Of a stretch of DNA of 64,000 bases, positions 2,986 to 60,944 are shown piece after piece. The DNA comes from Candidatus Latescibacterota bacterium. GTDB taxonomy: Bacteria; Latescibacterota; MVCY01; DTYK01. A program made the translations under genes and the position numbers. Each line of letters opens with the position of its first letter. Positions within the stretch are counted from its first letter, which is position 1. The stretch covers positions 797 through 64,796 of the forward strand of contig DTYK01000230.1 in NCBI GenBank assembly GCA_012961925.1, given 5' to 3'. A model generated the notes under the pieces. It was not told where the DNA came from and did no database searches. It worked only from the letters and a program-made list of their open reading frames with translations.

Positions 2986-3933
2986 TTAGGGTTTAGTATT
3001 CAATATTTCGGCAGCAGCTTTCACATCGGCCTCTATCTGTCTGGCCAGATCCCTTTCTTTCATGAATCTTATCTCGTCCCTTAACCTAGCAACTATCCGA
3101 ACATCGATTTGCAAACCATATAGATCGCCGTTGAACTCGAGCAGATGGACTTCGATCGATTGTGGCCCTTCTCCAAAACTGGGGTGTTTGCCTATGTTCA
3201 TCACACCTGCCCTACGTCCTTCCGGGAGGATTACCCACACGGCATAAACACCGTCACGGGGGATGAGTTTTCTTGAATGGTTCACTTTCAAATTTGCGGT
3301 CGGGAAGCCCAATCTTCTGCCGATACCTTTACCACCACCAACAAAGGCCGTCAGTGAATAGTTGCGGCCCAACAGTTCAGATGCCTTCTCGATTTCCCCC
3401 TGGGCTATAAGGTTTCTTATCCGTGTGCTGCTTACCGGTTGGCCCGCGATAAAGACGGGCGGAACAACAATTACTTCAAAGCCCACTCGTTTGCCGACGA
3501 GTTCTAAATCCTGTGGAACCCCCCTGCGTCCCTTACCGAAGGCATGGTTGTACCCGACAACAAGTTCCTTTACGCCAATCTTGTCAATCAATACTTTTTC
3601 AACGAACTCTTCTGGTTCGGACTTTGAGAATTCCAGGGTAAAGGGATGGACAACTGCGGCATGAATGCCATGAAGGGCAAATAACTTCAATTTCTCCTCT
3701 TTGGTCGTCAGAAGCGGTGGGGCTGTATCCGGGGCAATCACCTGCTGAGGATGCGGGTCAAAGGTGAGGACAACAGCAGTACCCCCCTTTGCTGTGGCTC
3801 TACTTGCAACCTCCTTCAGAACAGAAGAATGACCCATATGAACTCCATCGAAGGTACCTACGCTCACCACCGGGTAGAAACCAAGATCTCCTATTTTCTC
3901 AATATTTTCTATCGTCCTCATTGTAAAACACAC
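2986..3933 (-). CDS. ribF: bifunctional riboflavin kinase / FMN adenylyltransferase
   Basis: [10 protein letters not shown] nucleotidyltransferase motif at the N-terminus and a C-terminal riboflavin kinase domain. Conserved truB-ribF-rpsO context. Confidence 0.9.
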
Positions 3934-9277: not shown

Positions 9278-9367
9278 GCATCCTTCAAAACTTGACATAA
9301 ATTTTAAAATCTTGCTTTATGAAGACGAGTAGTTAAAAGTCATCCCCTCCCAGGGTGATCAGGCTAT

Positions 9368-10003: not shown

Positions 10004-11329
10004 ATGGTTAAAGACAAGGAATACGTGCTAAACGCTGTTAAGGAGAACGACGTGAAGTTCATCAGGTTATGGTTCACGGATGTCCTTGGATTTCTCAAGA
10101 GCTTCGCCATAACAGCAGAAGAGTTGGAGATCGCCTTAGATGAGGGGGTAGGTTTTGATGGTTCTTCTATCGAGGGTTTTGCAAGGATAGAGGAGAGCGA
10201 CATGATCGCCATGCCCGATCCAACTACTTTCCAGATCCTTCCATGGAGGCCTAAAGAGCAGGCTGTTGCCAGGATGTTCGCTGATATCTTAGAGCCGGAC
10301 GGCAGACCGTTTGAAGGCGATCCACGATATGTACTGAAAAAGATCCTTCAGCGTGCCAGAGAGATGGGCTTCACTTATTACCTTGGCCCTGAGCTCGAGT
10401 ATTTCTACTTCAAGACATCTGATGGGACAGAGATCCTGGATAAGGGAGGCTATTTCGATCTCACTCCGCCTAACCTTGCCCAGGATTTAAGGCGTGAGAC
10501 GATCTTTGCGTTGGAAAGCCTGGGCATTCCGGTTGAATGCAGCCACCATGAGGTTGCGCCATCTCAGCATGAGATCGACCTCCAGTATGCAGATGCGCTC
10601 ACAATGGCAGATAATGTCATGACCTATCGGCTTGTGGTAAAGGAGATTGCTCAACAGAAAGGTTTTTACGCTACCTTCATGCCGAAGCCCATATTTGGCG
10701 TGAACGGAAGTGGCATGCATGTGCACCAATCCCTTTACAAAGACGGCAAGAACGCCTTCTTTGACCATGACGATGTCTACCACCTCTCCCAGATGGGAAA
10801 ATCTTTCATTGCTGGTCTGCTGAAACATGCAAGGGAGATAACCTCGGTCACCAACCAGTGGGTGAACTCCTATAAGCGTCTCGTACTGGGATATGAAGCA
10901 CCCGTATACATCTCCTGGGCCCAGAGGAACAGATCGGCCTTGGTGAGGGTGCCTCTATATAAACCCGGCAAGGAGGGGGCGACTAGGATTGAGTTCAGGT
11001 CTCCGGACCCGGCCTGCAACCCCTACCTTGCCTTCTCAGTGATGCTGGCCGCAGGGCTGGAGGGAATAGAAAGGGGTTACGAACTGCCTGAACCCGTAAC
11101 AAACAACATATTCGAGATGACCGAGGAAGAAAGGGAGATGGCGGGGATAGACTCCTTACCCGAAAATCTGCTGGAGGCAATCAGGTTGACCGAAAGAAGT
11201 GAATTGGTAAAGAGGGTATTGGGCGAAAAAGTGTTTACGTACTTCATCAGGAACAAAAAAGCCGAGTGGGAGGAGTATAAGTCCCAGGTAACACAGTATG
11301 AGCTCGATAGATACCTGTCGATACTTTAA
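10004..11329 (+). CDS. glnA: glutamine synthetase type I
   Basis: 441-aa protein starting MVKDKEYVLNAVKENDVKFIRLWFTDVLG, with GS catalytic motifs (..MHVHQSL.., ..NRSALVRVP..). Confidence 0.95.
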   Translation: MVKDKEYVLNAVKENDVKFIRLWFTDVLGFLKSFAITAEELEIALDEGVGFDGSSIEGFARIEESDMIAMPDPTTFQILPWRPKEQAVARMFADILEPDGRPFEGDPRYVLKKILQRAREMGFTYYLGPELEYFYFKTSDGTEILDKGGYFDLTPPNLAQDLRRETIFALESLGIPVECSHHEVAPSQHEIDLQYADALTMADNVMTYRLVVKEIAQQKGFYATFMPKPIFGVNGSGMHVHQSLYKDGKNAFFDHDDVYHLSQMGKSFIAGLLKHAREITSVTNQWVNSYKRLVLGYEAPVYISWAQRNRSALVRVPLYKPGKEGATRIEFRSPDPACNPYLAFSVMLAAGLEGIERGYELPEPVTNNIFEMTEEEREMAGIDSLPENLLEAIRLTERSELVKRVLGEKVFTYFIRNKKAEWEEYKSQVTQYELDRYLSIL

Positions 11330-11434: not shown

Positions 11435-12214
11435 GTGTCGGAAAGCCAGAGAAGGAGAGGGCTTGCTTTGGCTCCAGAATCAAATCTACCACAAAGGATA
11501 AGCTCATGGATCAGGGAAAGGGTCCGCGAGGCTGGGGCAGATGGGGTTGTGGTAGGGCTGAGTGGAGGAGTGGACTCCTCTGTCGTGGCAGCATTAGCAA
11601 GGATGGCACTCGGCGAGAGGCTGCTCGGCCTGATAATGCCATGCCAGAGCAAGACATCCGACATTGAAGATGCCCGTCTGGTGGCAAGAAGGCTGGGCAT
11701 TAAGATGAAGGAGATCCCCCTGGACCCCATCTACGAGAGTTTCCTCGAGATCCTTCCCCCTGGGGATAGATTAACCAGAGCCAACCTCAAGGCCAGATTG
11801 AGAATGGTTACTCTATACTATTATGCCAACGGTCTCAACTACCTGGTAGCAGGTACAGGCAACAAAAGTGAACTGTCAATAGGCTATTTCACCAAGTACG
11901 GCGATGGAGGAGTTGATATACTACCTCTTGGAGGCCTTTTGAAGACCGAGGTGAAACAGCTTGCCAGAGAGCTCCGGATACCCGAGAGGATAATAGAAAA
12001 GATCCCCAGTGCCGGCCTCTGGGAGGATCAGACCGATGAAGAGGAGATGGGGATGAGCTATGAGGAACTGGACAGAGCTATACTGGCCATAGAATCCGGG
12101 GATGCCAGCGGGCTAACCTCAGAGATTTTGGACAAGGTGGCGGAGATGATGAAGGCTTCCAGGCACAAAAGGCAGCCGCCGCCGGCCTTCGAAAGGCAGG
12201 GAAAAATGCACTGA
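11435..12214 (+). CDS. nadE: NH3-dependent NAD+ synthetase
   Basis: PP-loop SGGVDSSV, 259 aa. The exact start is uncertain; the ATG at 11435 gives a ~38-aa lead before the P-loop. Confidence 0.85.
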   Translation: MSESQRRRGLALAPESNLPQRISSWIRERVREAGADGVVVGLSGGVDSSVVAALARMALGERLLGLIMPCQSKTSDIEDARLVARRLGIKMKEIPLDPIYESFLEILPPGDRLTRANLKARLRMVTLYYYANGLNYLVAGTGNKSELSIGYFTKYGDGGVDILPLGGLLKTEVKQLARELRIPERIIEKIPSAGLWEDQTDEEEMGMSYEELDRAILAIESGDASGLTSEILDKVAEMMKASRHKRQPPPAFERQGKMH

Positions 12215-14689: not shown

Positions 14690-14749
14690 AATTGAAAATC
14701 TGAGTTAACCTGCGGTTAAAAACGAAAATTCCTATACCCTCATGTTAGA

Positions 14750-16081: not shown

Positions 16082-16088
16082 GGCGCTC

Positions 16089-16131
16089 AGATTCGCTTTT
16101 TCAGTGTTCAGTTTCAGGTGTCCGGATTCAG
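16089..16131. repeat. copy 1 of the ~40-nt conserved motif (GATTCGCTTTTTCAGTGTTCAGTTTCAGG-TGTCCGGATTCAG) between the FGGY kinase and rsmB
   Basis: Aligns with the copies at 44388-44426 and 59052-59092. Confidence 0.5.
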
Positions 16132-24899: not shown

Positions 24900-24962
24900 C
24901 GTCGCCCTTTAAACCTCATAGTAAAAAGAACCGACAGTCCGAAGCCTTTGCCCCAACCGTCT

Positions 24963-25070
24963 TCGGCTCGCCCCAAGAGTTAACGCTTTAGCATTTCAGC
25001 CTGAGTAAGACAAACCGCTGAAGTCTATCCGTGAATGAAAGCCCAAAGGCTGAACTCCGACTTGCCTTCC
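24963..25070. repeat. copy A of a ~110-nt conserved intergenic element (pheS-pheT spacer)
   Basis: Shares (A/G)GAGTTAA(C/T)GCTTTAGCATTTCA...GAC...ATGAAAG...AACTCC(G/A)ACT(T/C)GCC with copies at 38329-38440 and 44468-44580; compensatory arm changes (see findings). Confidence 0.7.
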
Positions 25071-25072
25071 GC

Positions 25073-26086
25073 TCAGAATTGTTCTACGAACCTCAGGTCA
25101 TTTTCGTAGAAGAGCCTGACATCGTCTATCCCGTATTTTATCATCGCTATTCGTTCAATCCCCATACCGAAAGCAAAGCCGGAATATCTCTCGGCATCAT
25201 ATCCGACCTTTTCGAAGACGTTCGGGTCAACCATTCCTGCGCCGGCGATTTCAAGCCATCCCGTTCCTTCACAGAGCTTGCACCCCTTCCCCTCACAGAC
25301 CACACAGGAGAAGTCGTACTCGACGCTGGGTTCGGTGAATGGGAAAAAATGAGGCCGTAGGCGGACTTTAGCTCCCCTCCCAAGCAATTGGCGGGCAAAT
25401 GTGGTCAACACCCCCTTAAGATCGGCCATCGTCACGTCTGTGTCAACATACAATCCTTCCACCTGATGGAAATTGGGCGAATGAGTGGCGTCGGGCGTAT
25501 CCCTCCGATAACACCGTCCTGCATGAATGATCCGCACAGGCGGTCTCTGTTTCTCCATCACGCGGATCTGTACAGGAGATGTATGAGTCCTCAGGAGCTG
25601 ACCATTCTCCAAGTAGAAGGTATCCTGGATATCGCGAGAAGGATGGTCGGCCGGAGTATTCAGGGCATCGAAGTTATAATACTCCGTCTCCACCTCCGGG
25701 CCATCCACCAGAGAGAAACCCATCCCGTGGAATATATATATGATCTCTTCGGTCACCAGAGTGAGTGGGTGCTTTCTCCCCAAAGGTAACTTTCTACCGG
25801 GCAATGTAACATCGAAGAACGCAGGAGTCCTGCCGGCTTCTCTGGTTTCAAGATCTGAAGAAACCTCTTTAATCTTCTCCAATATCGCTTTCTTCGCTTC
25901 CCCTGCAGCCTTTCCAACGATAGGGCGTTGTTCAGCGGGCATGTCCGCGATCGCCCTGAACATGCGGGTGAGTTGACCCTTTCTACCAAGATACTTGCTC
26001 TTCAACTCGGCCAGGCGCCGGGAATCAGAGCAGGCCTGGAGTTCCTTTATGGCTGATACTTTGATGCTCTCTATCTCTTCGAGCAT
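25073..26086 (-). CDS. pheS: phenylalanine--tRNA ligase alpha subunit
   Basis: 337-aa class II aaRS core with motifs 2/3 (..FHQVEGL.., ..GFAFGMGIERIAM..). Confidence 0.95.
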   Translation of the reverse strand: MLEEIESIKVSAIKELQACSDSRRLAELKSKYLGRKGQLTRMFRAIADMPAEQRPIVGKAAGEAKKAILEKIKEVSSDLETREAGRTPAFFDVTLPGRKLPLGRKHPLTLVTEEIIYIFHGMGFSLVDGPEVETEYYNFDALNTPADHPSRDIQDTFYLENGQLLRTHTSPVQIRVMEKQRPPVRIIHAGRCYRRDTPDATHSPNFHQVEGLYVDTDVTMADLKGVLTTFARQLLGRGAKVRLRPHFFPFTEPSVEYDFSCVVCEGKGCKLCEGTGWLEIAGAGMVDPNVFEKVGYDAERYSGFAFGMGIERIAMIKYGIDDVRLFYENDLRFVEQF

Positions 26087-29269: not shown

Positions 29270-29346
29270 TGGTGGGCGGTACTGGACTTGAACCAGTGAC
29301 CTCTTGCATGTCAAGCAAGCACTCTAACCAACTGAGCTAACCGCCC
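29270..29346 (-). tRNA. tRNA-Val (anticodon GAC), CCA encoded
   Basis: Cloverleaf folded by hand: GGGCGGU/ACCGCCC acceptor stem, D-arm GCUC/GAGU, anticodon stem CUUGC/GCAAG with loop UUGACAU, T-arm ACUGG-UUCAAGU-CCAGU, then ACCA. Confidence 0.9.
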
Positions 29347-34847: not shown

Positions 34848-34880
34848 CCACAGATTACACAGATTAACACAGGATTACAA
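34848..34880. repeat. tandem CACAGATTA repeats (ACCACAGATTACACAGATTAACACAGGATTA) upstream of pheA
   Basis: A related ACCACAGATTAACCCAGATTCGG lies upstream of the dehydrogenase gene at 44326-44346. Both sit 45-85 nt upstream of minus-strand start codons. Confidence 0.5.
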
Positions 34881-38287: not shown

Positions 38288-38328
38288 GCTACATAGAACG
38301 ACCTAATCAAATGCGCATAAACTGCCGC

Positions 38329-38440
38329 AGCTTCGCTCAAGGAGTTTAATGCTTTAGTATTTCATCTTGGGCAAGACAAACCGTTGAGTCTGTACATCTG
38401 AGGATGAAAGTCTAAAGACTTAACTCCGGCTCCATGCGCT
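38329..38440. repeat. copy B of the ~110-nt conserved intergenic element (aminotransferase-hisG spacer)
   Basis: Same element as copy A, with terminal GGAGTT...AACTCC arms and inner TTTCATC/GATGAAA arms. Confidence 0.7.
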
Positions 38441-38463
38441 TTTCAATCCAAACCCGTGGTTCT

Positions 38464-39677: not shown

Positions 39678-40805
39678 TTACAGCCAGCCAGTCAGTTCCG
39701 CCAGCAATTTTGAATATTCGACGTAATCAGGCCATGATATGTCGGGTGGGACCCCGTGATCGCATCCGGGGATGAATCCTCCATCTTTCAATAGGGGAGG
39801 TACTACTCGCATGACTTCCCTCTCCATGGCCCGTCCACCCTTGGCAAGGGCACGTTTATCAATGCCGCCGATATATGCCATCCTGTTCCCATATCTCTTC
39901 CGATACTCGACGATGTCGTTGCCAGCGGCGACCTCCACAGGCTGGCAGCAGTTGATCCCTGCCTCTATCCAGATAGGGATCAGTTCACCGATGTAACCGT
40001 CCGAATCCATCGAAACCAGAGGACAACCGCTTGCCTTGATCTCTGAAACCCAGCGATCGTATGTTGGCAGTAAAAACTGCCGGACCATCCTCGGTGAGAT
40101 CATGCTGTGGCCCTTGTAGGCCATGTCCTCCGAAATACATACGCTGTCCACCTCGACCTTTTCAAGGATAGGCGCCATCGTCCGGGAGACGAACCCGGCC
40201 CAGAAATCGATCATCTCTTGTACAAAATCAGGATCATCCATCATCAACATGCAGAGGTTTTCGAAGCCACACCATTCCCGGAGCTGCCAGAAAGGTCCAT
40301 TAAAACCAAAACTCACCACATAATCTCGGTTCTTCAACCTCTCGCATCGCTGCTCAAAATCCTCCGGGTAGCGCCCAGGCGCCTTTGGATCGAAACGTCT
40401 TTTCATCTCCTCCCAGTCCTTGTGGTTCTCTACCGGGAACTTGTGCCACTTCCGGGTCACGAAATCCTTAGCCGAACGGATGTAGGTGTAGTCGTATTGG
40501 TCTGAGATCTCAGTGATGGCCCCCATCCAGTCCTGCACCACGTAATGTCCATCCCTGTGTTCAAGCACCTTCTCCTCAAATTTGGGAATCATCTGAAACG
40601 ATACGCCCAGATCGACCCTCGGCTCCTGAGGTTCCTGTTCTATGCCGAGGATGTCAAGCAGGGCCTCGTAATAGCTTGCTCCTTCGGGAAGCCCCTGCTG
40701 GTGCCATGTCGCCAGGGTGGATTCTCTCGGGCCCCCAGGAGAAAAGGGTATCTTATCAGGTTTACCAAAAAGGAGTGTTTCCCGATACCGCTCCCTCTTA
40801 TTCAT
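39678..40805 (-). CDS. uroporphyrinogen decarboxylase (URO-D) family protein of unknown function
   Basis: 375 aa with a URO-D/MtaA-like TIM-barrel pattern. It lies inside a pentose/pentitol catabolic array. Confidence 0.6.
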   Translation of the reverse strand: MNKRERYRETLLFGKPDKIPFSPGGPRESTLATWHQQGLPEGASYYEALLDILGIEQEPQEPRVDLGVSFQMIPKFEEKVLEHRDGHYVVQDWMGAITEISDQYDYTYIRSAKDFVTRKWHKFPVENHKDWEEMKRRFDPKAPGRYPEDFEQRCERLKNRDYVVSFGFNGPFWQLREWCGFENLCMLMMDDPDFVQEMIDFWAGFVSRTMAPILEKVEVDSVCISEDMAYKGHSMISPRMVRQFLLPTYDRWVSEIKASGCPLVSMDSDGYIGELIPIWIEAGINCCQPVEVAAGNDIVEYRKRYGNRMAYIGGIDKRALAKGGRAMEREVMRVVPPLLKDGGFIPGCDHGVPPDISWPDYVEYSKLLAELTGWL

Positions 40806-41485
40806 CTGACCCCCTCCATCTTTTCCTGTCCGTATCTATGGTGGTACCGATCCCACCATTTCTCGATCTCATCCGGCGATAATTCATCGGGCTTCCCCCT
40901 CAGGAGAGTGAGGTAGACGGTCTTTGCTACGTCTTCCACCATCACCGCTGCCTTCAAGGCAGCAGATGGAGAAGGACCAAAGGTAAAGACCCCATGATTC
41001 TTCAAGAGTACGGCCGGGCCTCTATTCATCGCACGGACGACGGCCCTCCCTATGTTGTCCGCCTCGTTACTTGCATATTCCGCACACGGGATCTCTCCGC
41101 CAAATTCATCCGCTATAGCCGTCAGATAGGGTCTGATAGGCTGCCCCAATGCCGCAAAGCTCGTGGCATAGTTCGAATGTGTATGAACAATACCGTTTAT
41201 CCCGGATTTATGACGATAAATGTAAAGATGATTGGGCAGATCTACTGACGGGCGGAAGACGCCTTCAAGGGCATTCCCATCAAGATCAACAACCACCAGA
41301 TCCTCAGGCTTCATCTCCTCAAATCTCACACCGCTTGGCTTGATGACTACGTAATTGGTCTCCGGATCTCGGCCACTCACATTGCCGCTTGTCATGGTCA
41401 CCAGTCCCTGTCTCGGCAATTCCTGGTTCATCCGCCATACTTCCTGCCGTAGCCTTTCCAACATGATCAGATCCTCCCTTGACAA
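40802..41485 (-). CDS. araD: L-ribulose-5-phosphate 4-epimerase (class II aldolase family)
   Basis: Sequence LVTMTSGNVSGRDPETNYVVIKPSGV...NGIVHTHSNYAT...IPCAEY, which matches E. coli AraD motif by motif. Confidence 0.8.
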   Translation of the reverse strand: MSREDLIMLERLRQEVWRMNQELPRQGLVTMTSGNVSGRDPETNYVVIKPSGVRFEEMKPEDLVVVDLDGNALEGVFRPSVDLPNHLYIYRHKSGINGIVHTHSNYATSFAALGQPIRPYLTAIADEFGGEIPCAEYASNEADNIGRAVVRAMNRGPAVLLKNHGVFTFGPSPSAALKAAVMVEDVAKTVYLTLLRGKPDELSPDEIEKWWDRYHHRYGQEKMEGVR

Positions 41486-41493
41486 CCTTTCAC

Positions 41494-43170
41494 CTATCTT
41501 GTCACCTCCGCCCTGATCCTCTTTAGCCTCTTCATCACATCGTTTTCGCCGCGTCCGAAGTAATCATGCAATCTGGCATATTCCCCAAATAGTTCCTCAT
41601 ATATCCTTTTGTTCTCCGGGATGGGGATGAACTTCTCGTCCTTGATCCTCGCCATCCTCCGTGCTGCCTCGAAGATATCGTCATACCCGCCATTCTCACT
41701 TCCTGCGGCCACAGCCCCGAACATTGCAGAGCCGAAGGCGGAGGTCTGAGGGGAAGCCGCGAGCTTTATCTCCCTTCCCGTGACATCGGCGAAGATCTGC
41801 ATCACCAGCTTATTCCTTTCAGGCAATCCCCCGCACGCATATATCTCATCAACCGCCACACCCGAGTCCTCAAAGGCCTTTATGATCATCCGCGTGCCAT
41901 AAGCAGTAGATTCGATAAGCGCACGGTAGATCTCTTCAGGACGAGTATTGAGCGTACAACCCATGAGAAATCCCATGAGATCAGCATCCACCAGCACCGA
42001 CCTGTTTCCATTCCACCAGTCCAGGGCCAACAGACCTGTCTCTCCTGGCTTGAGCCTGGAGGCCTTCTCCTCCAAGAGGGCATGAAGGTCGATGTCCCTC
42101 CGTTCTGCTTCTTCATGGTACTCCGGAGGGACACATGCCTTTAGAAACCACGCATAAATGTCTCCCACCGCAGATTGTCCTGCTTCGAAGCCGATGAAGC
42201 CGGGCAGGATACCGTCCTCCACGGCTCCACACATACCTTCTACGGTCTTCCTCTCCCTCCCCAATACCATATGGCAGATGGAGGTCCCCATTATCATAAC
42301 CATCTTACCCGGCTCCGTCACAGTAGCGGCGGGCACGGCAACATGTGCATCCACGTTGCCAACTGCCACGGATGTCCCAGGCTTAAGACCTGTCAGCCGG
42401 GCCATTTCTGGAGTGAGACCGCCTGCCTTCGTGCCAAGAGGGTATATGTCAGTCGAAAGTTTCTCCTCAACTACGTTCTCAAACCCTGGATGCACTGACC
42501 GGAAATAATCCCTGCTCGGATAACCATGTTTTTTATCCCATATCGCCTTGTAGCCCGCTGTGCAGAGGTTACGTCTTTCATTGCCTGTGAGCTGGAGTAC
42601 GATCCAATCTGCCCCTTCAATCATCCTGTCCGCAGCCTCATATATCTCCGGGGCTTCGTTCAGTATCTGGAGGATCTTCGGGAAAAACCACTCCGACGAG
42701 ATCTTTCCCCCATACCTCAAGAGGAATTTCTCCCCCCTCTCTCTAGCCACCTGATTTACCCTGTCAGCCTCCGGCTGGGCCGCATGGTGTTTCCACAGCT
42801 TCACCCAGGCGTGGGGATTACCTTTGTACTGATTCAACATACACAAAGGGGTGCCCCCTTTATCTATAGGCATCATCGTACACGATGTGAAATCTATCCC
42901 CAGGCCGACCACACATTCAGGATTAATCCCCGCCTGCTCGATCACAGCCGGTATTGTGGTCTTCAGTACCTCAATGTAATCGGCTGGATTTTGGAGCGCC
43001 CAGTCCGGTTCCAACTGGGTACTTCCGTCCGGCAGCACTCGGTCTATAACTCCATCTTTATAGTGATGCACGGATGTGCCAACCTCCTCACCCGTCTCCA
43101 CGTCCACGAGAACAGTTCGGCCTGACTCCGTACCGAAGTCTATGCCTATGGAGTATCTTTTGCCATACAT
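41494..43170 (-). CDS. araB: ribulokinase
   Basis: 558-aa FGGY kinase; [31 protein letters not shown] parallels the E. coli AraB region. Confidence 0.85.
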
Positions 43171-43248: not shown

Positions 43249-44280
43249 TCAAATCCTGATGACAGCTTTAACTACTCCATCACCGTAGCTCTCGACTAAA
43301 TGAAAGGCGGATACTATCTCTTCAAGAGAGAACTCATGAGTAACCAGAGATTTAACATCGACCAACCTCTTCTCAACCAACCTGATGGCCCTGGGATAGG
43401 TATGTCTCATCCTCCTAACCAGCTTGATGGTAATCCCCTTACGACGGGCAGAAGAGGCACTTAAATGGATACTATCCTCGGAAGAGATACCTATGAGGAC
43501 CACCCTGCCCCCGGGCTTCACTATATCCACTGCCTGCTGGGGCGTTTCTACCACGCCGGCCGCTTCAAAGACCACATCTACACCTCTATTACCAGTTGCA
43601 TCCGTTATCCTTCTCACCGGGTCTTCAACAGCAGCGTTAATCACCAGGGAGGCACCGAAATGTTCCGCCCAACTGAGCCTATCCCGAAGCAGATCCGTAG
43701 CATATATCTCAGCCGCTCCTGTCAACCTGACGAGCTGGATTACCGAGAGCCCGATCGAACCAGAACCCAGTACGGCTACTGTCTCCGCGGGCTTAACCTT
43801 ACCGAGATCTACAGCATGAAGGCTCACGGCCAGAGGTTCTATCATTGCCCCTTCAGCAAGGCTCAAGCCTCCTGGTAGTGGAAAAACGAAGTCCGAAGGG
43901 TAGGGTATCTGCTCCCTGTAGCAGCCGTCAACCGGCGGAGTGCCGCAGAACTTCATACTTTTACATAGGTTATAGTTCCCTTCACGGCATGCCTCACAGA
44001 CACGGCAGGGCACCCCTGGTTCGACACAGACGGGAACCCCGGGCTCTAATCCATCCACCCTCTTCCCCACCTCTTCTACCACACCGGCGAATTCATGCCC
44101 AAGGATGATAGGTTTAGTAACGACAGCGTCTCCTATCCTACCGTATCTGAAGTAATGAACATCAGACCTGCAGACACCAGCAGCTTTTACCCTGATCAGG
44201 ACCTCGCCATCTCTGATCCCTGGCGGCTTGGCGTCTTCAATACGCAGGTCCCCTGGACGATACAGTCTGGCAACTCGCAT
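43249..44280 (-). CDS. Zn-dependent polyol dehydrogenase (sorbitol/xylitol/arabinitol dehydrogenase family, MDR)
   Basis: Catalytic Zn ligands (GVCRSDVHY, GHEFAG), a structural Zn motif CRVCEACREGNYNLC, and a Rossmann GSGSIG. Confidence 0.75.
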   Translation of the reverse strand: MRVARLYRPGDLRIEDAKPPGIRDGEVLIRVKAAGVCRSDVHYFRYGRIGDAVVTKPIILGHEFAGVVEEVGKRVDGLEPGVPVCVEPGVPCRVCEACREGNYNLCKSMKFCGTPPVDGCYREQIPYPSDFVFPLPGGLSLAEGAMIEPLAVSLHAVDLGKVKPAETVAVLGSGSIGLSVIQLVRLTGAAEIYATDLLRDRLSWAEHFGASLVINAAVEDPVRRITDATGNRGVDVVFEAAGVVETPQQAVDIVKPGGRVVLIGISSEDSIHLSASSARRKGITIKLVRRMRHTYPRAIRLVEKRLVDVKSLVTHEFSLEEIVSAFHLVESYGDGVVKAVIRI

Positions 44281-44325
44281 CTCTCAACCTGTAACTTGAT
44301 AGTATAGGAGTTTCCCCTTTTTAAA

Positions 44326-44346
44326 CCACAGATTAACCCAGATTCG
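44326..44346. repeat. CACAGATTA-type repeat upstream of the polyol dehydrogenase gene
   Basis: ACCACAGATTAACCCAGATTCGG, related to 34848-34880. Confidence 0.45.
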
Positions 44347-44387
44347 GAAAACACCGAACAAACGCCGAAAACAACTGACCTAACTTC

Positions 44388-44426
44388 TTCGAATGTTTTT
44401 CAGTGTTCAATTTCCCGGATTTAGCA
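44388..44426. repeat. copy 2 of a ~40-nt conserved motif (CGAATG-TTTTTCAGTGTTCAATTTCC-CGGATTTAG)
   Basis: Aligns with 16089-16131 and 59052-59092. Confidence 0.5.
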
Positions 44427-44431
44427 CTTTC

Positions 44432-44452
44432 GGTCGGGGGTAAACCCCGACC
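44432..44452. promoter_or_regulatory. GC-rich hairpin GGTCGGGG-GTAAA-CCCCGACC
   Basis: Perfect 8-bp stem read directly, in the rplS-dehydrogenase spacer between the two repeat elements. Confidence 0.35.
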
Positions 44453-44467
44453 CTACCTCCGTTTTCA

Positions 44468-44580
44468 GCTCACCCCAGGAGTTAATGCTTTAGCATTTCA
44501 TCCTATGTAAGACGTACCCCCGAGCCTGTAGAGCGGGGGATGAAAGGCTGAAGTTTGAACTCCAACTCGCCCTCCCTTTC
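44468..44580. repeat. copy C of the ~110-nt conserved intergenic element (rplS-dehydrogenase spacer)
   Basis: Same conserved termini as copies A and B. The variable core forms its own hairpin, CCCCCG-agcctgtagag-CGGGGG. Confidence 0.7.
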
Positions 44581-44693
44581 GATCAGAGGCGCCTGAAAAC
44601 GGCCGTTCCGTTTGCCGGACGGTCATAACGGCTCAGGCTTAAGTGCACCTCATCCTCCACTACGCCAAACGGGTACAGCACCTTTTGAGGTAG

Positions 44694-45035
44694 CTATCTC
44701 CTTTTAGCGATCCTTGCGGCTTTCCCCTTGAGTTCTCTCAGGTAGAAGAGCTTCGCCCTCCTTACTCTGCCTCTTTGAACCACCTCGATCTTAACCAGGT
44801 TTGGAGAGTGTAGGGGAAATATCCTCTCTACGCTTACTCCGCCCGATACCCTTCGGACGGTAAAGGTCTCACTGATGCCACTGCCTCTCCTCTGGAGGAC
44901 TACCCCCTGAAATATCTGGGTCCGTTCCTTTTCCCCCTCAATCACTCTTACGTGTACCCTCACCGTGTCACCGGGACCAAACTCCGGGATATCATCCTTG
45001 ATCTGGTTTGCGACGACAGAAGTTAAAACATCCAT
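44694..45035 (-). CDS. rplS: 50S ribosomal protein L19
   Basis: 113-aa canonical L19 (..[25 protein letters not shown]..). Confidence 0.95.
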
Positions 45036-45121
45036 CTTCTCTCCTTCTGATTCAAAATTTATGATTCATGAGAGACTATAACATATTGGAGGAGGCGGAA
45101 CCCTCTAACAACCCAGGGGAC

Positions 45122-45811
45122 TTAGAGATCGTCCCCGGATATTAAATCCGGTCTTCTCCTCCGTGTCCTCTCCAAAGATTTCGCTCTTCTCCACTCCTCT
45201 ATCTTTCGATGATCTCCTGAGAACAGGATCTCGGGGACTTCCATCCCCTCAAATACCCTGGGACGCGTATACCATGGGCAATCAAGAAGGCCATCTTGAA
45301 AGGAATCGTCCAGGGCAGATTGTGAATCGTTCAGAACGCCGGGCATTAAACGTACCACGGCATCAATGACCACCATTGCTGCAAGCTCACCGCCGCTGAG
45401 AACATAGTCGCCAATTGAGATCTCATCGGTCACGTATTTCTCTCTTATCCTTTCATCTATACCTTTATAATGGCCACAGATGAAGACCAAGTGCTTCTCC
45501 AGTGAAAGTCTATTTGCCATCGACTGAGTGAATAGTTCACCCTGCGGTGTAAGAAAGATAACCCTCTTTGGTTCCTCCCTTCCTCTTTTGAGCGACCGTA
45601 ATGCCCGGGCTATGGGTTCTGGTTTGAGCACCATGCCAGGGCCTCCGCCGAAGGGGTAATCGTCCACTTTCCTATGGGCATCGAGTGCAAAATCACGGAT
45701 GTTGTGTATCTCTATGGTGATCAGCCCCTTATCTCTGGCTCGGCGGACAAGTCCCCCTCCAAATGGAGCGCAGAACATCTCCGGGAATATGGTCAATATA
45801 TCGATCAACAT
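45122..45811 (-). CDS. trmD: tRNA (guanine37-N1)-methyltransferase
   Basis: Sequence [13 protein letters not shown]...[17 protein letters not shown]. Confidence 0.9.
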
Positions 45812-46444: not shown

Positions 46445-47044
46445 TTAATTTCCAGTGGCATCTTCGGCCTGCGGCTTCTGTTTCTGCTGCCTGGCGCGGC
46501 GCTGTTTCTTTGGCCTTGTTTCAGCCACGGTATCACCCTGCGTCTCCGGAACAGGCGGCTCAGGCTCCTCGGCAGCTTCATCTCTTCCTTCTGCGTCCGA
46601 CGGCGCAGGTTGGACTGGCTCCGTCGGCGTCTGCTCCTCTCGTTCAGTTGGCGTTTCTGCTGGAGGAACATGCTCGGCTGGTTCCGGGGAGGTCGTTTCA
46701 GCCTCACCGACTTCTGGCTCCGTTGGTTCGGGCGCGGCAAGCTCTGGCTCAACGCTCACAGGTTCAGCCGTTGGAGTGGCTCTGCGTATCTGATCCCATT
46801 TGCTCAGGACACCATATCGCTTGAGCAGACTTCTGGCCGTCTCAGTAGGTATTGCGCCTTTGCTTAACCAGAAGATCACCCGCTCTTCGTCGATCCTCAC
46901 CTCTGCAGGATCCGGGATGGGGTTGTAGAAGCCTAACTCCTCGATGTATACACCATCTCTCGGGGCCTTTGAATCCGCAACAACTATCCTGTAGAACGGT
47001 CTCTTTTTGGCCCCCATTCGCTTCAACCTGATCTTTACTGGCAA
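46445..47044 (-). CDS. rpsP: 30S ribosomal protein S16 with ~115-aa Pro/Glu/Thr/Ala-rich C-terminal extension
   Basis: Canonical S16 over aa 1-80 ([31 protein letters not shown]..), then a low-complexity acidic tail (..[27 protein letters not shown]..) ending in a basic [12 protein letters not shown] patch. Confidence 0.85.
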
Positions 47045-58985: not shown

Positions 58986-59051
58986 ACATAGGGCTGTGCC
59001 TTGCACGTAGATTCCTTGTAGTATAAACGCTCGAAATAAAACTGATTCGAA

Positions 59052-59092
59052 AGATTCGGCTTCTTTCAGTGTTAATCTTCCAGGATTTGGGC
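59052..59092. repeat. copy 3 of the ~40-nt conserved motif (GATTCGGCTTCTTTCAGTGTTAATCTTCC-AGGATTTGG) in the ABC-operon leader
   Basis: Aligns with 16089-16131 and 44388-44426. Confidence 0.5.
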
Positions 59093-59108
59093 TGAAAAAG
59101 GAGGTAAG

Positions 59109-60872: not shown

Positions 60873-60944
60873 ATTGGTGACCCTTACAAGGTAAGATATT
60901 AAAATCCATGTCAAGTTTTGAAGGGAGGAGAGTGAAGTAAGAAG

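Follow-up and report, generated by a model that had tools for sequence, protein, structure and literature searches.

Palindromic repeats that are dispersed through a genome and lie at operon junctions are familiar from phyla other than the Latescibacterota. MITEs are defined by terminal inverted repeats, a target-site duplication and a partner IS, and GTAG-tagged REPs are mobilised by RAYT transposases. ERIC (enterobacterial repetitive intergenic consensus) sequences are 127-bp imperfect palindromes with orientation-dependent effects on mRNA stability (PMC2229807), and GTAG REPs are 20-40-bp palindromes that carry an unpaired GTAG at one end (PMC3733652). Here we describe a long spacer on a Latescibacterota genome that is probably a mosaic of dispersed, non-coding ERIC/MITE-like repeats at the junction of two operons, presumably assembled by a mobile mechanism.

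The window that we analyzed is the whole stretch of 64,000 nucleotides taken from contig DTYK01000230.1 of a Candidatus Latescibacterota bacterium (GenBank assembly GCA_012961925.1). The spacer lies at positions 44281-44693, between rplS and a Zn-dependent dehydrogenase gene, and is 413 nt long based on ORF coordinates; the first-pass annotation gave it as 414 bp. All genes around the spacer are on the minus strand. The upstream neighbor, rplS (44694..45035, minus strand; ribosomal protein L19, from the ORF and Pfam Ribosomal_L19), is the final gene of the conserved block ffh-rpsP-rimM-trmD-rplS. Downstream of the spacer, the gene for a Zn-dependent MDR dehydrogenase (43249..44280, minus strand), which scores under every NCBIfam equivalog cut-off, is the first of an operon that continues with ribulokinase (41494-43170, minus strand) and L-ribulose-5-P 4-epimerase (40802-41485, minus strand), both of which pass their NCBIfam cut-offs. 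In the order of transcription, the epimerase gene is followed by a URO-D-like gene, an aminotransferase gene, hisG, hisD, hisC and pheA, and farther along by rplT, pheS and pheT.

This genome has no close relative in the collections searched; among 5.8 billion proteins the next-best TrmD is 77% identical, the best Latescibacterota MAG genomes reach at most 75%, and the PheS identity of the nearest relatives is at most 72%. The ffh-to-rplS block is syntenic in 13 Latescibacterota loci, and in 13 of 13 the genes that lie downstream of rplS in the window are absent after rplS, so that these relatives offer no orthologous spacer for alignment. The gap following rplS is 3-43 nt in 10 of these 13 relatives and 108-381 nt in the other 3 (simple ORF finder). 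Given the short gaps and the differing downstream genes, the 413-nt spacer is atypically long and marks a synteny breakpoint. It thus does part the ribosomal block from a pentose/pentitol operon, as originally noted, and the suggestion that small elements accumulate at this site is borne out both by the length of the spacer relative to those of relatives and by its content, since ~60% of its length is made up of sequences that this genome also has in other intergenic gaps. The spacer shows no variation within the population: 10 contigs from six samples carry no SNP or indel in it, and hence no insertion polymorphism. It has no similarity to plasmids or phages.

The part of the spacer nearest rplS (44603..44693, minus strand) has no repeat elsewhere in the window. 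It contains a weak hairpin at 44603-44622 (7 bp, one bulge), after which the minus strand reads CCGUUUUC, with only 4 U; read from the sequence, and unflagged by the terminator scan, this hairpin and its UUUU may be a weak terminator that ends the rplS transcript. Scanning 43900-45300 gave no Rho-independent terminator on either strand, and no promoter-like or sigma-70-like sites were found in the spacer. Folding of the entire spacer is modestly better than that of shuffled sequences (z = -2.3), an excess for which the two hairpins account.

The first-pass annotation had listed four small elements in the spacer, and all are present in essentially the places assigned to them (sequence, repeat and hairpin searches). 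The description of the four as unrelated does not hold: the “CACAGATTA” repeat forms one end, and the “TTTCAGTGTT” motif the other, of a single unit of ~95 nt, here called family 2, which occupies 44330..44427 on the plus strand, with a tandem of CAGATT 10-mers at its left end and GTTTTTCAG...CCGGATTTAG at its right end. The left end carries the tandem CAGATTAACCCAGATT (44329-44344), an instance of the pattern CAGRTT-N3-5-CAGRTT, for which the window has 3 matches where 0.14 are expected, all of them in intergenic DNA (3/3). The right end is the 40-nt TTTCAGTGTT motif (44385-44424), for which the window itself offers marginal partners at 16097-16115 (E about 0.001-0.07) and 59064-59088 (E about 0.006-0.07). 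Stronger copies lie just past the ends of the window (E 1e-5 to 4e-6), on ~15 kb of the same genome recovered from public contigs (L092 to the right, L094 to the left). Window positions 44328-44387 and 44394-44424 match L092 20768-20886, and 44330-44415 matches L094 17530-17609. In both of these gaps a CAGATT-type start and a TTTCAGTGTT-type end are joined in one unit of ~90-120 nt, which is why we treat the two motifs of the spacer as a single element.

Across ~80 kb of this genome, family 2 is represented by 4 full and 2 partial copies, occupying five gaps besides the spacer. A copy that lacks the CAGATT end (59025..59095, plus strand) is directly 5' of the AAGGAGG of an SBP_bac_5 gene and stops 14 nt ahead of its start codon. 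One partial copy, consisting of the right-end motif only, is at 16084..16131 (plus strand) in the gap between an FGGY-kinase gene and rsmB; its E value of 5.7e-5 comes from a model whose training set includes this very sequence. The other, at L092 20589-20627, was detected with a profile built from the full copies. Overlapping the left end of the unit in the spacer is a 53-nt segment (44292..44344, plus strand) that is 77% identical to the reverse complement of 14697-14747 (E 3e-5, and 3e-7 among intergenic DNA); this second copy (14697..14747, minus strand) lies in the gap between rsmB and a PASTA gene and includes the tandem CAGGTTAACTCAGATT. On its minus strand, the segment in the spacer has a TATACT ~20 nt upstream of the start codon of the dehydrogenase gene. 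A further tandem, CACAGATTA-CACAGATTA(A)-CACAGGATTA, is in the hisC/pheA gap (34851..34865, plus strand). Family 2 is richer in AT than family 1 (below), and its orientations are mixed, with copies after mutL, before an asparaginase gene, 14 nt before the SBP gene and antisense in two gaps. A terminal inverted repeat reaches significance in just one copy of the four compared (left half against the reverse-complemented right half). The 8-nt sequence GGTTAAAC flanks the L092 copy and none of the remaining copies, which are few and have uncertain boundaries.

Assembly data point to further copies of family 2. Four independent fragmentary assemblies (two JGI, two Logan) break within 44393-44424, a 32-nt segment that reads ATGTTTTTCAGTGTTCAATTTCCCGGATTTAG; contigs from the dehydrogenase side end at 44424 or 44422, and those from the rplS side at 44393 or 44395. 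An exact repeat makes a de Bruijn assembler end contigs from both sides. As contigs arriving from both directions end in the same 32 nt, an exact repeat probably exists at 44393-44424, and because every other readable copy differs somewhere in these 32 nt, family 2 would have at least one additional copy elsewhere in the genome. In the tiling from JGI 3300005745 (>100 kb), the sole other break is in tRNA-Val, at 29298-29304 (from contig ranges), and another metagenome contig stops at 14693, adjoining the 14697-14747 copy of the 53-nt segment.

The right-end motif of family 2 is also present in a second lineage. In the Latescibacteria MAG GCA_030608245.1 (L103; PheS identity 70%), the region upstream of ftsW has the motif, as GTTTTTCAG..CCGGRT, at two sites 210 nt apart. 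When 1.05 Mb of fetched loci were scanned with a regular expression for it, there were 3 sites in this genome, 2 in L103 and one other site. Retention of the motif at 70% PheS identity exceeds what is expected for neutral selfish DNA, and this cross-lineage conservation is the observation least well explained by reading the repeats as selfish.

Could family 2 and the 53-nt segment be protein-binding or regulatory DNA that serves the dehydrogenase/ribulokinase operon and other loci of a regulon, as operators, iterons or a promoter module? We consider this unlikely. The CAGRTT tandems have a spacing of 9-10 bp and, as noted, are enriched and always intergenic; those at 44329-44344 and 34851-34865 sit 50-65 nt upstream of a start codon, and three copies adjoin sugar-related genes (ribulokinase, FGGY kinase and a sugar transporter/SBP pair). 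In L103 the two right-end motifs upstream of ftsW are followed by TATAAT or TATAAG. However, the copies are inconsistent in orientation and position relative to genes (3' of mutL and of the FGGY kinase gene, antisense to their neighbors in two gaps and, for one copy, 14 nt ahead of a start codon), and the neighboring genes are functionally unrelated (rsmB, the PASTA gene, pheA, the asparaginase gene and ftsW). The -10-like hexamer of L103 is absent from the copies in this genome, where TATAAT is replaced by TTTAGC, TTTAGG or TTTGGG, and the spacer has no sigma-70-like site. The exact 32-nt duplicate implied by the assembly breaks also suits a repeat better than an operator. The narrower proposal that family 2 is a sigma-70 promoter was rejected, both for the altered hexamer and for the copy that ends 14 nt before a start codon.

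The second repeat in the spacer, family 1, was first described as a 110-nt element. It is an imperfect palindrome of ~125-145 nt with three copies within 64 kb, which are 74-82% identical and share about 123-133 nt. Copy C, in the spacer, occupies 44459..44602 (plus strand), with similarity to copies A and B over 44459-44590 and a core hairpin at 44478-44563. Copy A (24957..25079, plus strand) fills most of the 173-nt pheS-pheT gap, and copy B (38320..38452, plus strand) most of the 176-nt gap from the aminotransferase gene to hisG; each accounts for ~75% of its gap of ~175 nt. Copy C is 74% identical to 24957-25070 over 117 nt (E 5.5e-18) and 74% identical to 38333-38432 over 100 nt (E 1.1e-14). 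The 3' end of copy A overlaps the pheS stop codon (25073-25075), and Correia and ERIC insertions likewise often overlap stop codons. The genes on either side of each copy are on the same strand, and all three copies face the same way with respect to transcription; this agreement could hint at a role at the RNA level, but with three copies it has a one-in-four chance of arising at random.

The core of family 1 reads GGAGTTAATGCTTTAGCATTTCATCC ... GGATGAAAGGCTGAAGTTTGAACTCC, with arms of 26 nt whose complementarity in copy C is 81%. Conservation is highest in the stems, and the apex is variable; ~20 nt of common, non-palindromic sequence flanks the palindrome on each side, so that the 26-nt arms are internal and the similarity between copies runs ~20 nt past them. 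A perfect 10-bp outer inverted repeat (44459-44468 / 44593-44602) closes copy C alone. Inspection by eye revealed no target-site duplication at the boundaries, which are uncertain with three copies. A conserved small ORF inside the element was considered and rejected, as the reading frames differ among the three copies, and no T-run follows the hairpin.

Searches for family 1 beyond these three copies were negative. No further diverged copy was recovered with nhmmer --max from the window, the extensions or the relatives' loci, and none with a covariance model (filters off) from the window, the extensions and six other loci. In E. coli there was no match for 44455-44605 (blastn word size 11; 5,426 genomes, 28 Gb). 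Exact-pattern scans gave 0 matches in a genome collection that does not include this genome, 1 match in a metagenome collection (L007, AT-rich and with no ORF, attributable to chance), and, in a viral collection, 3 chance matches for family 1 and 0 for family 2. In the relatives, nhmmer and the covariance model recovered neither family, apart from the right-end motif in L103, and the gaps compared are non-orthologous or unrelated. In the two nearest relatives, pheS and pheT are separated by 185 and 202 nt that are unrelated in sequence to the gap of the window, and the pheS-pheT gap of L103 carries its own, different large palindrome (z = -5.5). Palindromic repeats specific to one lineage seem, on this evidence, to be common in the group and to turn over in the same permissive gaps.

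Between the two repeats of the spacer is the fourth listed element, a perfect 8-bp GC-rich hairpin, GGTCGGGG-GTAAA-CCCCGACC (44432..44452). It occurs once in the window, with no further copy even when 3 mismatches or a variable loop are allowed, and it is the sole intergenic perfect stem of ≥7 bp above 80% G+C in the window. A role as the rplS terminator was rejected, as there is no T-run on either strand.

A reading that assigns a function to each family seems to us rather improbable. It holds that the right-end motif (GTTTTTCAG-N12-14-CCGGAT) and the CAGATT tandems are a lineage-specific signal, and that family 1 is an ERIC-like element for RNA processing or stability. The signal could be an array bound by a nucleoid protein or a regulator, or else a promoter or leader module of an unusual type, and family 1 could set the dosage of its neighbors (pheS vs. 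pheT, the his operon, rplS vs. the sugar operon). We know of no experimental genetics in this candidate phylum.

It is very unlikely that the spacer holds an unannotated structured RNA, either family 1 as a cis element or a small RNA on the plus strand that extends from the family 2 motif to the GC hairpin. As a cis element, family 1 would control relative expression within pheS/pheT, the his operon and rplS/dehydrogenase. Its plus strand folds better than shuffled sequences in copies B (z = -2.7) and C (z = -3.9), its stems are best conserved, as described, and its three copies lie in one orientation inside transcription units; a hairpin is located 8-85 nt after the family 2 right-end motif in 5 of 7 cases, and ERIC sequences provide a precedent for orientation-dependent effects on mRNA stability (PMC2229807). 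The folding excess is weaker on the minus strand, however, and copy A folds no better than shuffles on either strand. Across the three copies 92% of cells pair on the plus strand and 91% on the minus, most pairs are invariant, and covariation is not above that of shuffles (181/500 and 88/500; three copies). Because pairing is equal on both strands and there is no excess covariation, the hairpin is best regarded as a property of the shared palindromic sequence; nothing points to selection on an RNA structure in family 1. Family 2 was rejected as a structured RNA, as RNAalifold yielded no consensus structure (7 pairs on one strand, none on the other and no covariation).

Known RNAs were likewise rejected as an explanation for the spacer. 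Rfam 15 at gathering score gave tRNA-Val as the sole match in the whole window; relaxing the threshold to E up to 10 over 44100-44900 gave a best E of 0.77, which is at the level of chance, and the extension and the relatives' loci contributed one tRNA and nothing else. With the covariance model (filters off), there was no homolog of family 1 in the relatives' pheS-pheT gaps or in ~90 kb of loci that include Latescibacteria MAGs. With no Rfam family, no promoter- or terminator-like site, no structure in family 2 and no covariation in family 1, the idea that the spacer is a non-coding gene, raised in the first-pass annotation, is not supported.

That the spacer is instead a rearrangement scar, in which recombination mediated by dispersed repeat copies brought the pentose operon next to the rplS block and the repeats did not insert there later, agrees with synteny that stops exactly at rplS in all relatives and with assemblies that branch inside family 2 as if linking alternative genomic contexts, but is highly doubtful, as contigs of 127 kb and 211 kb and the window show one arrangement, no alternative junction was recovered, and the reading presupposes dispersed repeats and so refines the mosaic explanation rather than replacing it.

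We therefore favor the mosaic of dispersed repeats. The spacer would consist of the unique rplS 3' region and a short dehydrogenase-proximal region flanking two repeat families and a solitary GC hairpin. The conserved trmD-rplS block would end here, the pentose/pentitol operon would have been joined to it in this lineage, and the insertion-tolerant junction between the operons would have acquired, through transposition or recombination, a copy of family 1 and a copy of family 2. Family 1 would be an ERIC/MITE-like element that is co-transcribed with its co-directional neighbors and whose RNA would fold into a long stem-loop. Family 2 is unstructured and present in either orientation, probably with one or more recent identical copies at other sites of the genome. 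We infer that both families are or were mobile; searches for an empty site, a target-site duplication and a sharp terminal inverted repeat found none for either family. The repeats themselves are real, dispersed and intergenic, and if they act at all, the transcribed stem-loops would most likely insulate rplS from the sugar operon, as a barrier at the mRNA 3' end or as a processing site, in line with the ERIC precedent.

This genome thus has at least two, and probably four, short intergenic repeat families that lack matches in the libraries searched. The repeats lengthen certain gaps within operons, of ~45 nt otherwise, to ~175 nt and break short-read assemblies, as at 44393-44424. If mobile, they would be the first MITE/ERIC-like elements noted in this candidate phylum, as far as we found, and could provide strain markers and a handle on genome rearrangement. 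They alter no general principle: the phenomenon in the spacer is ordinary for bacterial genomes, and it is the sequences that match nothing in the libraries.

A GTAG beside a hairpin can arise by chance, and no RAYT gene was seen in the window. The GC hairpin shares several features with the GTAG REPs described in PMC3733652: it is a GC-rich palindrome of 21 nt, it is downstream of a coding region and between genes of the same direction, and on the minus strand a GTAG directly precedes it (44456-44432 reads GTAG-GGTCGGGG-TTTAC-CCCCGACC, with CTAC at 44453-44456 on the plus strand). REPs are defined by high copy number, whereas this hairpin is single-copy in ~80 kb. More generally, the repeats described here belong to the same generic class as the stem-loop-containing repeat families of PMC2267715, which are repeated intergenic sequences that form hairpins and are often claimed to be transcribed; that class is descriptive and implies no mechanism, and family 2 has no stem-loop. 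Both families are of MITE size and have several dispersed copies, and no ORF is conserved across them. The Correia/NEMIS and RUP MITEs are alike in being small (100-200 bp), non-coding, dispersed and intergenic, with transcripts that form long stem-loops (PMC2229807). A close counterpart of family 1 is ERIC/IRU, which it matches in form only, with no sequence homology to the enterobacterial consensus; family 1 further differs in belonging to another phylum, in a similarity between copies that reaches past the palindrome, and in that TA termini and a target duplication were not seen. It is like ERIC/IRU in its size, its imperfect palindrome and its predicted single long stem-loop, in the divergence of its copies to 74-82% identity, and in its location in transcribed gaps between co-directional genes, including the pheS/pheT operon (PMC2229807).

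The intergenic DNA of the window is enriched in the heptamer TTTTCAG (or its complement): intergenic sequence makes up 8.6% of the window and contains 6 of the heptamer's 17 occurrences. Half of these six (44397, 44462 and 44593) lie in the spacer between rplS and the Zn-dependent dehydrogenase gene, with the rest scattered in other gaps, and TTTTCAG and its complement form the outer inverted repeat of the spacer copy of the imperfect palindromic repeat. A 37-nt sequence, AAGnnAAGATnTTAAAATnnATGTCAAGTTTTGAAGG, is present in two copies (9282-9318 and 60888-60924; 86% identical), each just 5' of a start codon and oriented alike with respect to the gene it precedes: one immediately precedes the nusA start codon and the other lies ~20 nt upstream of that of an ABC permease. 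This sequence may represent a further short intergenic repeat family, or a common translation-initiation or leader motif.

The rpsP gene (ribosomal protein S16; 46445-47044) is called at 190-199 amino acids, about twice the usual length, and aligns to relatives over roughly its first 80-100 residues only, which implies a C-terminal extension specific to the lineage. The pentose/pentitol operon includes a gene for a URO-D-like protein (39678-40805), flanked by an epimerase gene on one side and an aspartate-aminotransferase-like gene on the other; the protein has a weak Pfam match, confined to its C-terminal half, and matched no NCBIfam family. Among the contigs of metagenome assembly JGI 3300005745, which tile the window region, the break point other than the one in the spacer falls in tRNA-Val(GAC) (29270-29346), at ~29298-29304 as computed arithmetically from the contig ranges. 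A break within this gene suggests that the genome carries a second, identical tRNA-Val gene elsewhere.

The related Latescibacteria MAG L103 (GCA_030608245.1, ~70% PheS identity) has repeated sequences of several kinds. Upstream of its ftsW, a unit of ~90 nt occurs twice (11801-11886 and 12011-12099; 97-100% identical), the copies being 210 nt apart; in each, TATAAG or TATAAT comes after the motif GTTTTTCAG..CCGG, and a strong hairpin lies downstream. The gap between a ymdB-like gene and xseA (10465-10587) holds ~11 tandem copies of the 8-nt unit CCCTAYGA. Two adjoining repeat segments, ~56 nt in total and 86-93% identical, are found 5' of infC and again 5' of pheS (1841-1911 and 3256-3311), and may be a common leader or yet another repeat family.

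A long pheS-pheT gap (173-202 nt) is present in three Latescibacteria lineages: at 24900-25072 in the window, at 4369-4570 in L103 and at 11033-11217 in the locus of another relative (L101). The gap sequences are unrelated to one another, and that of L103 has a palindrome of its own (~130 nt, z = -5.5). Either this gap has been colonized repeatedly by different repeats, or a structure has been kept there without conservation of sequence.
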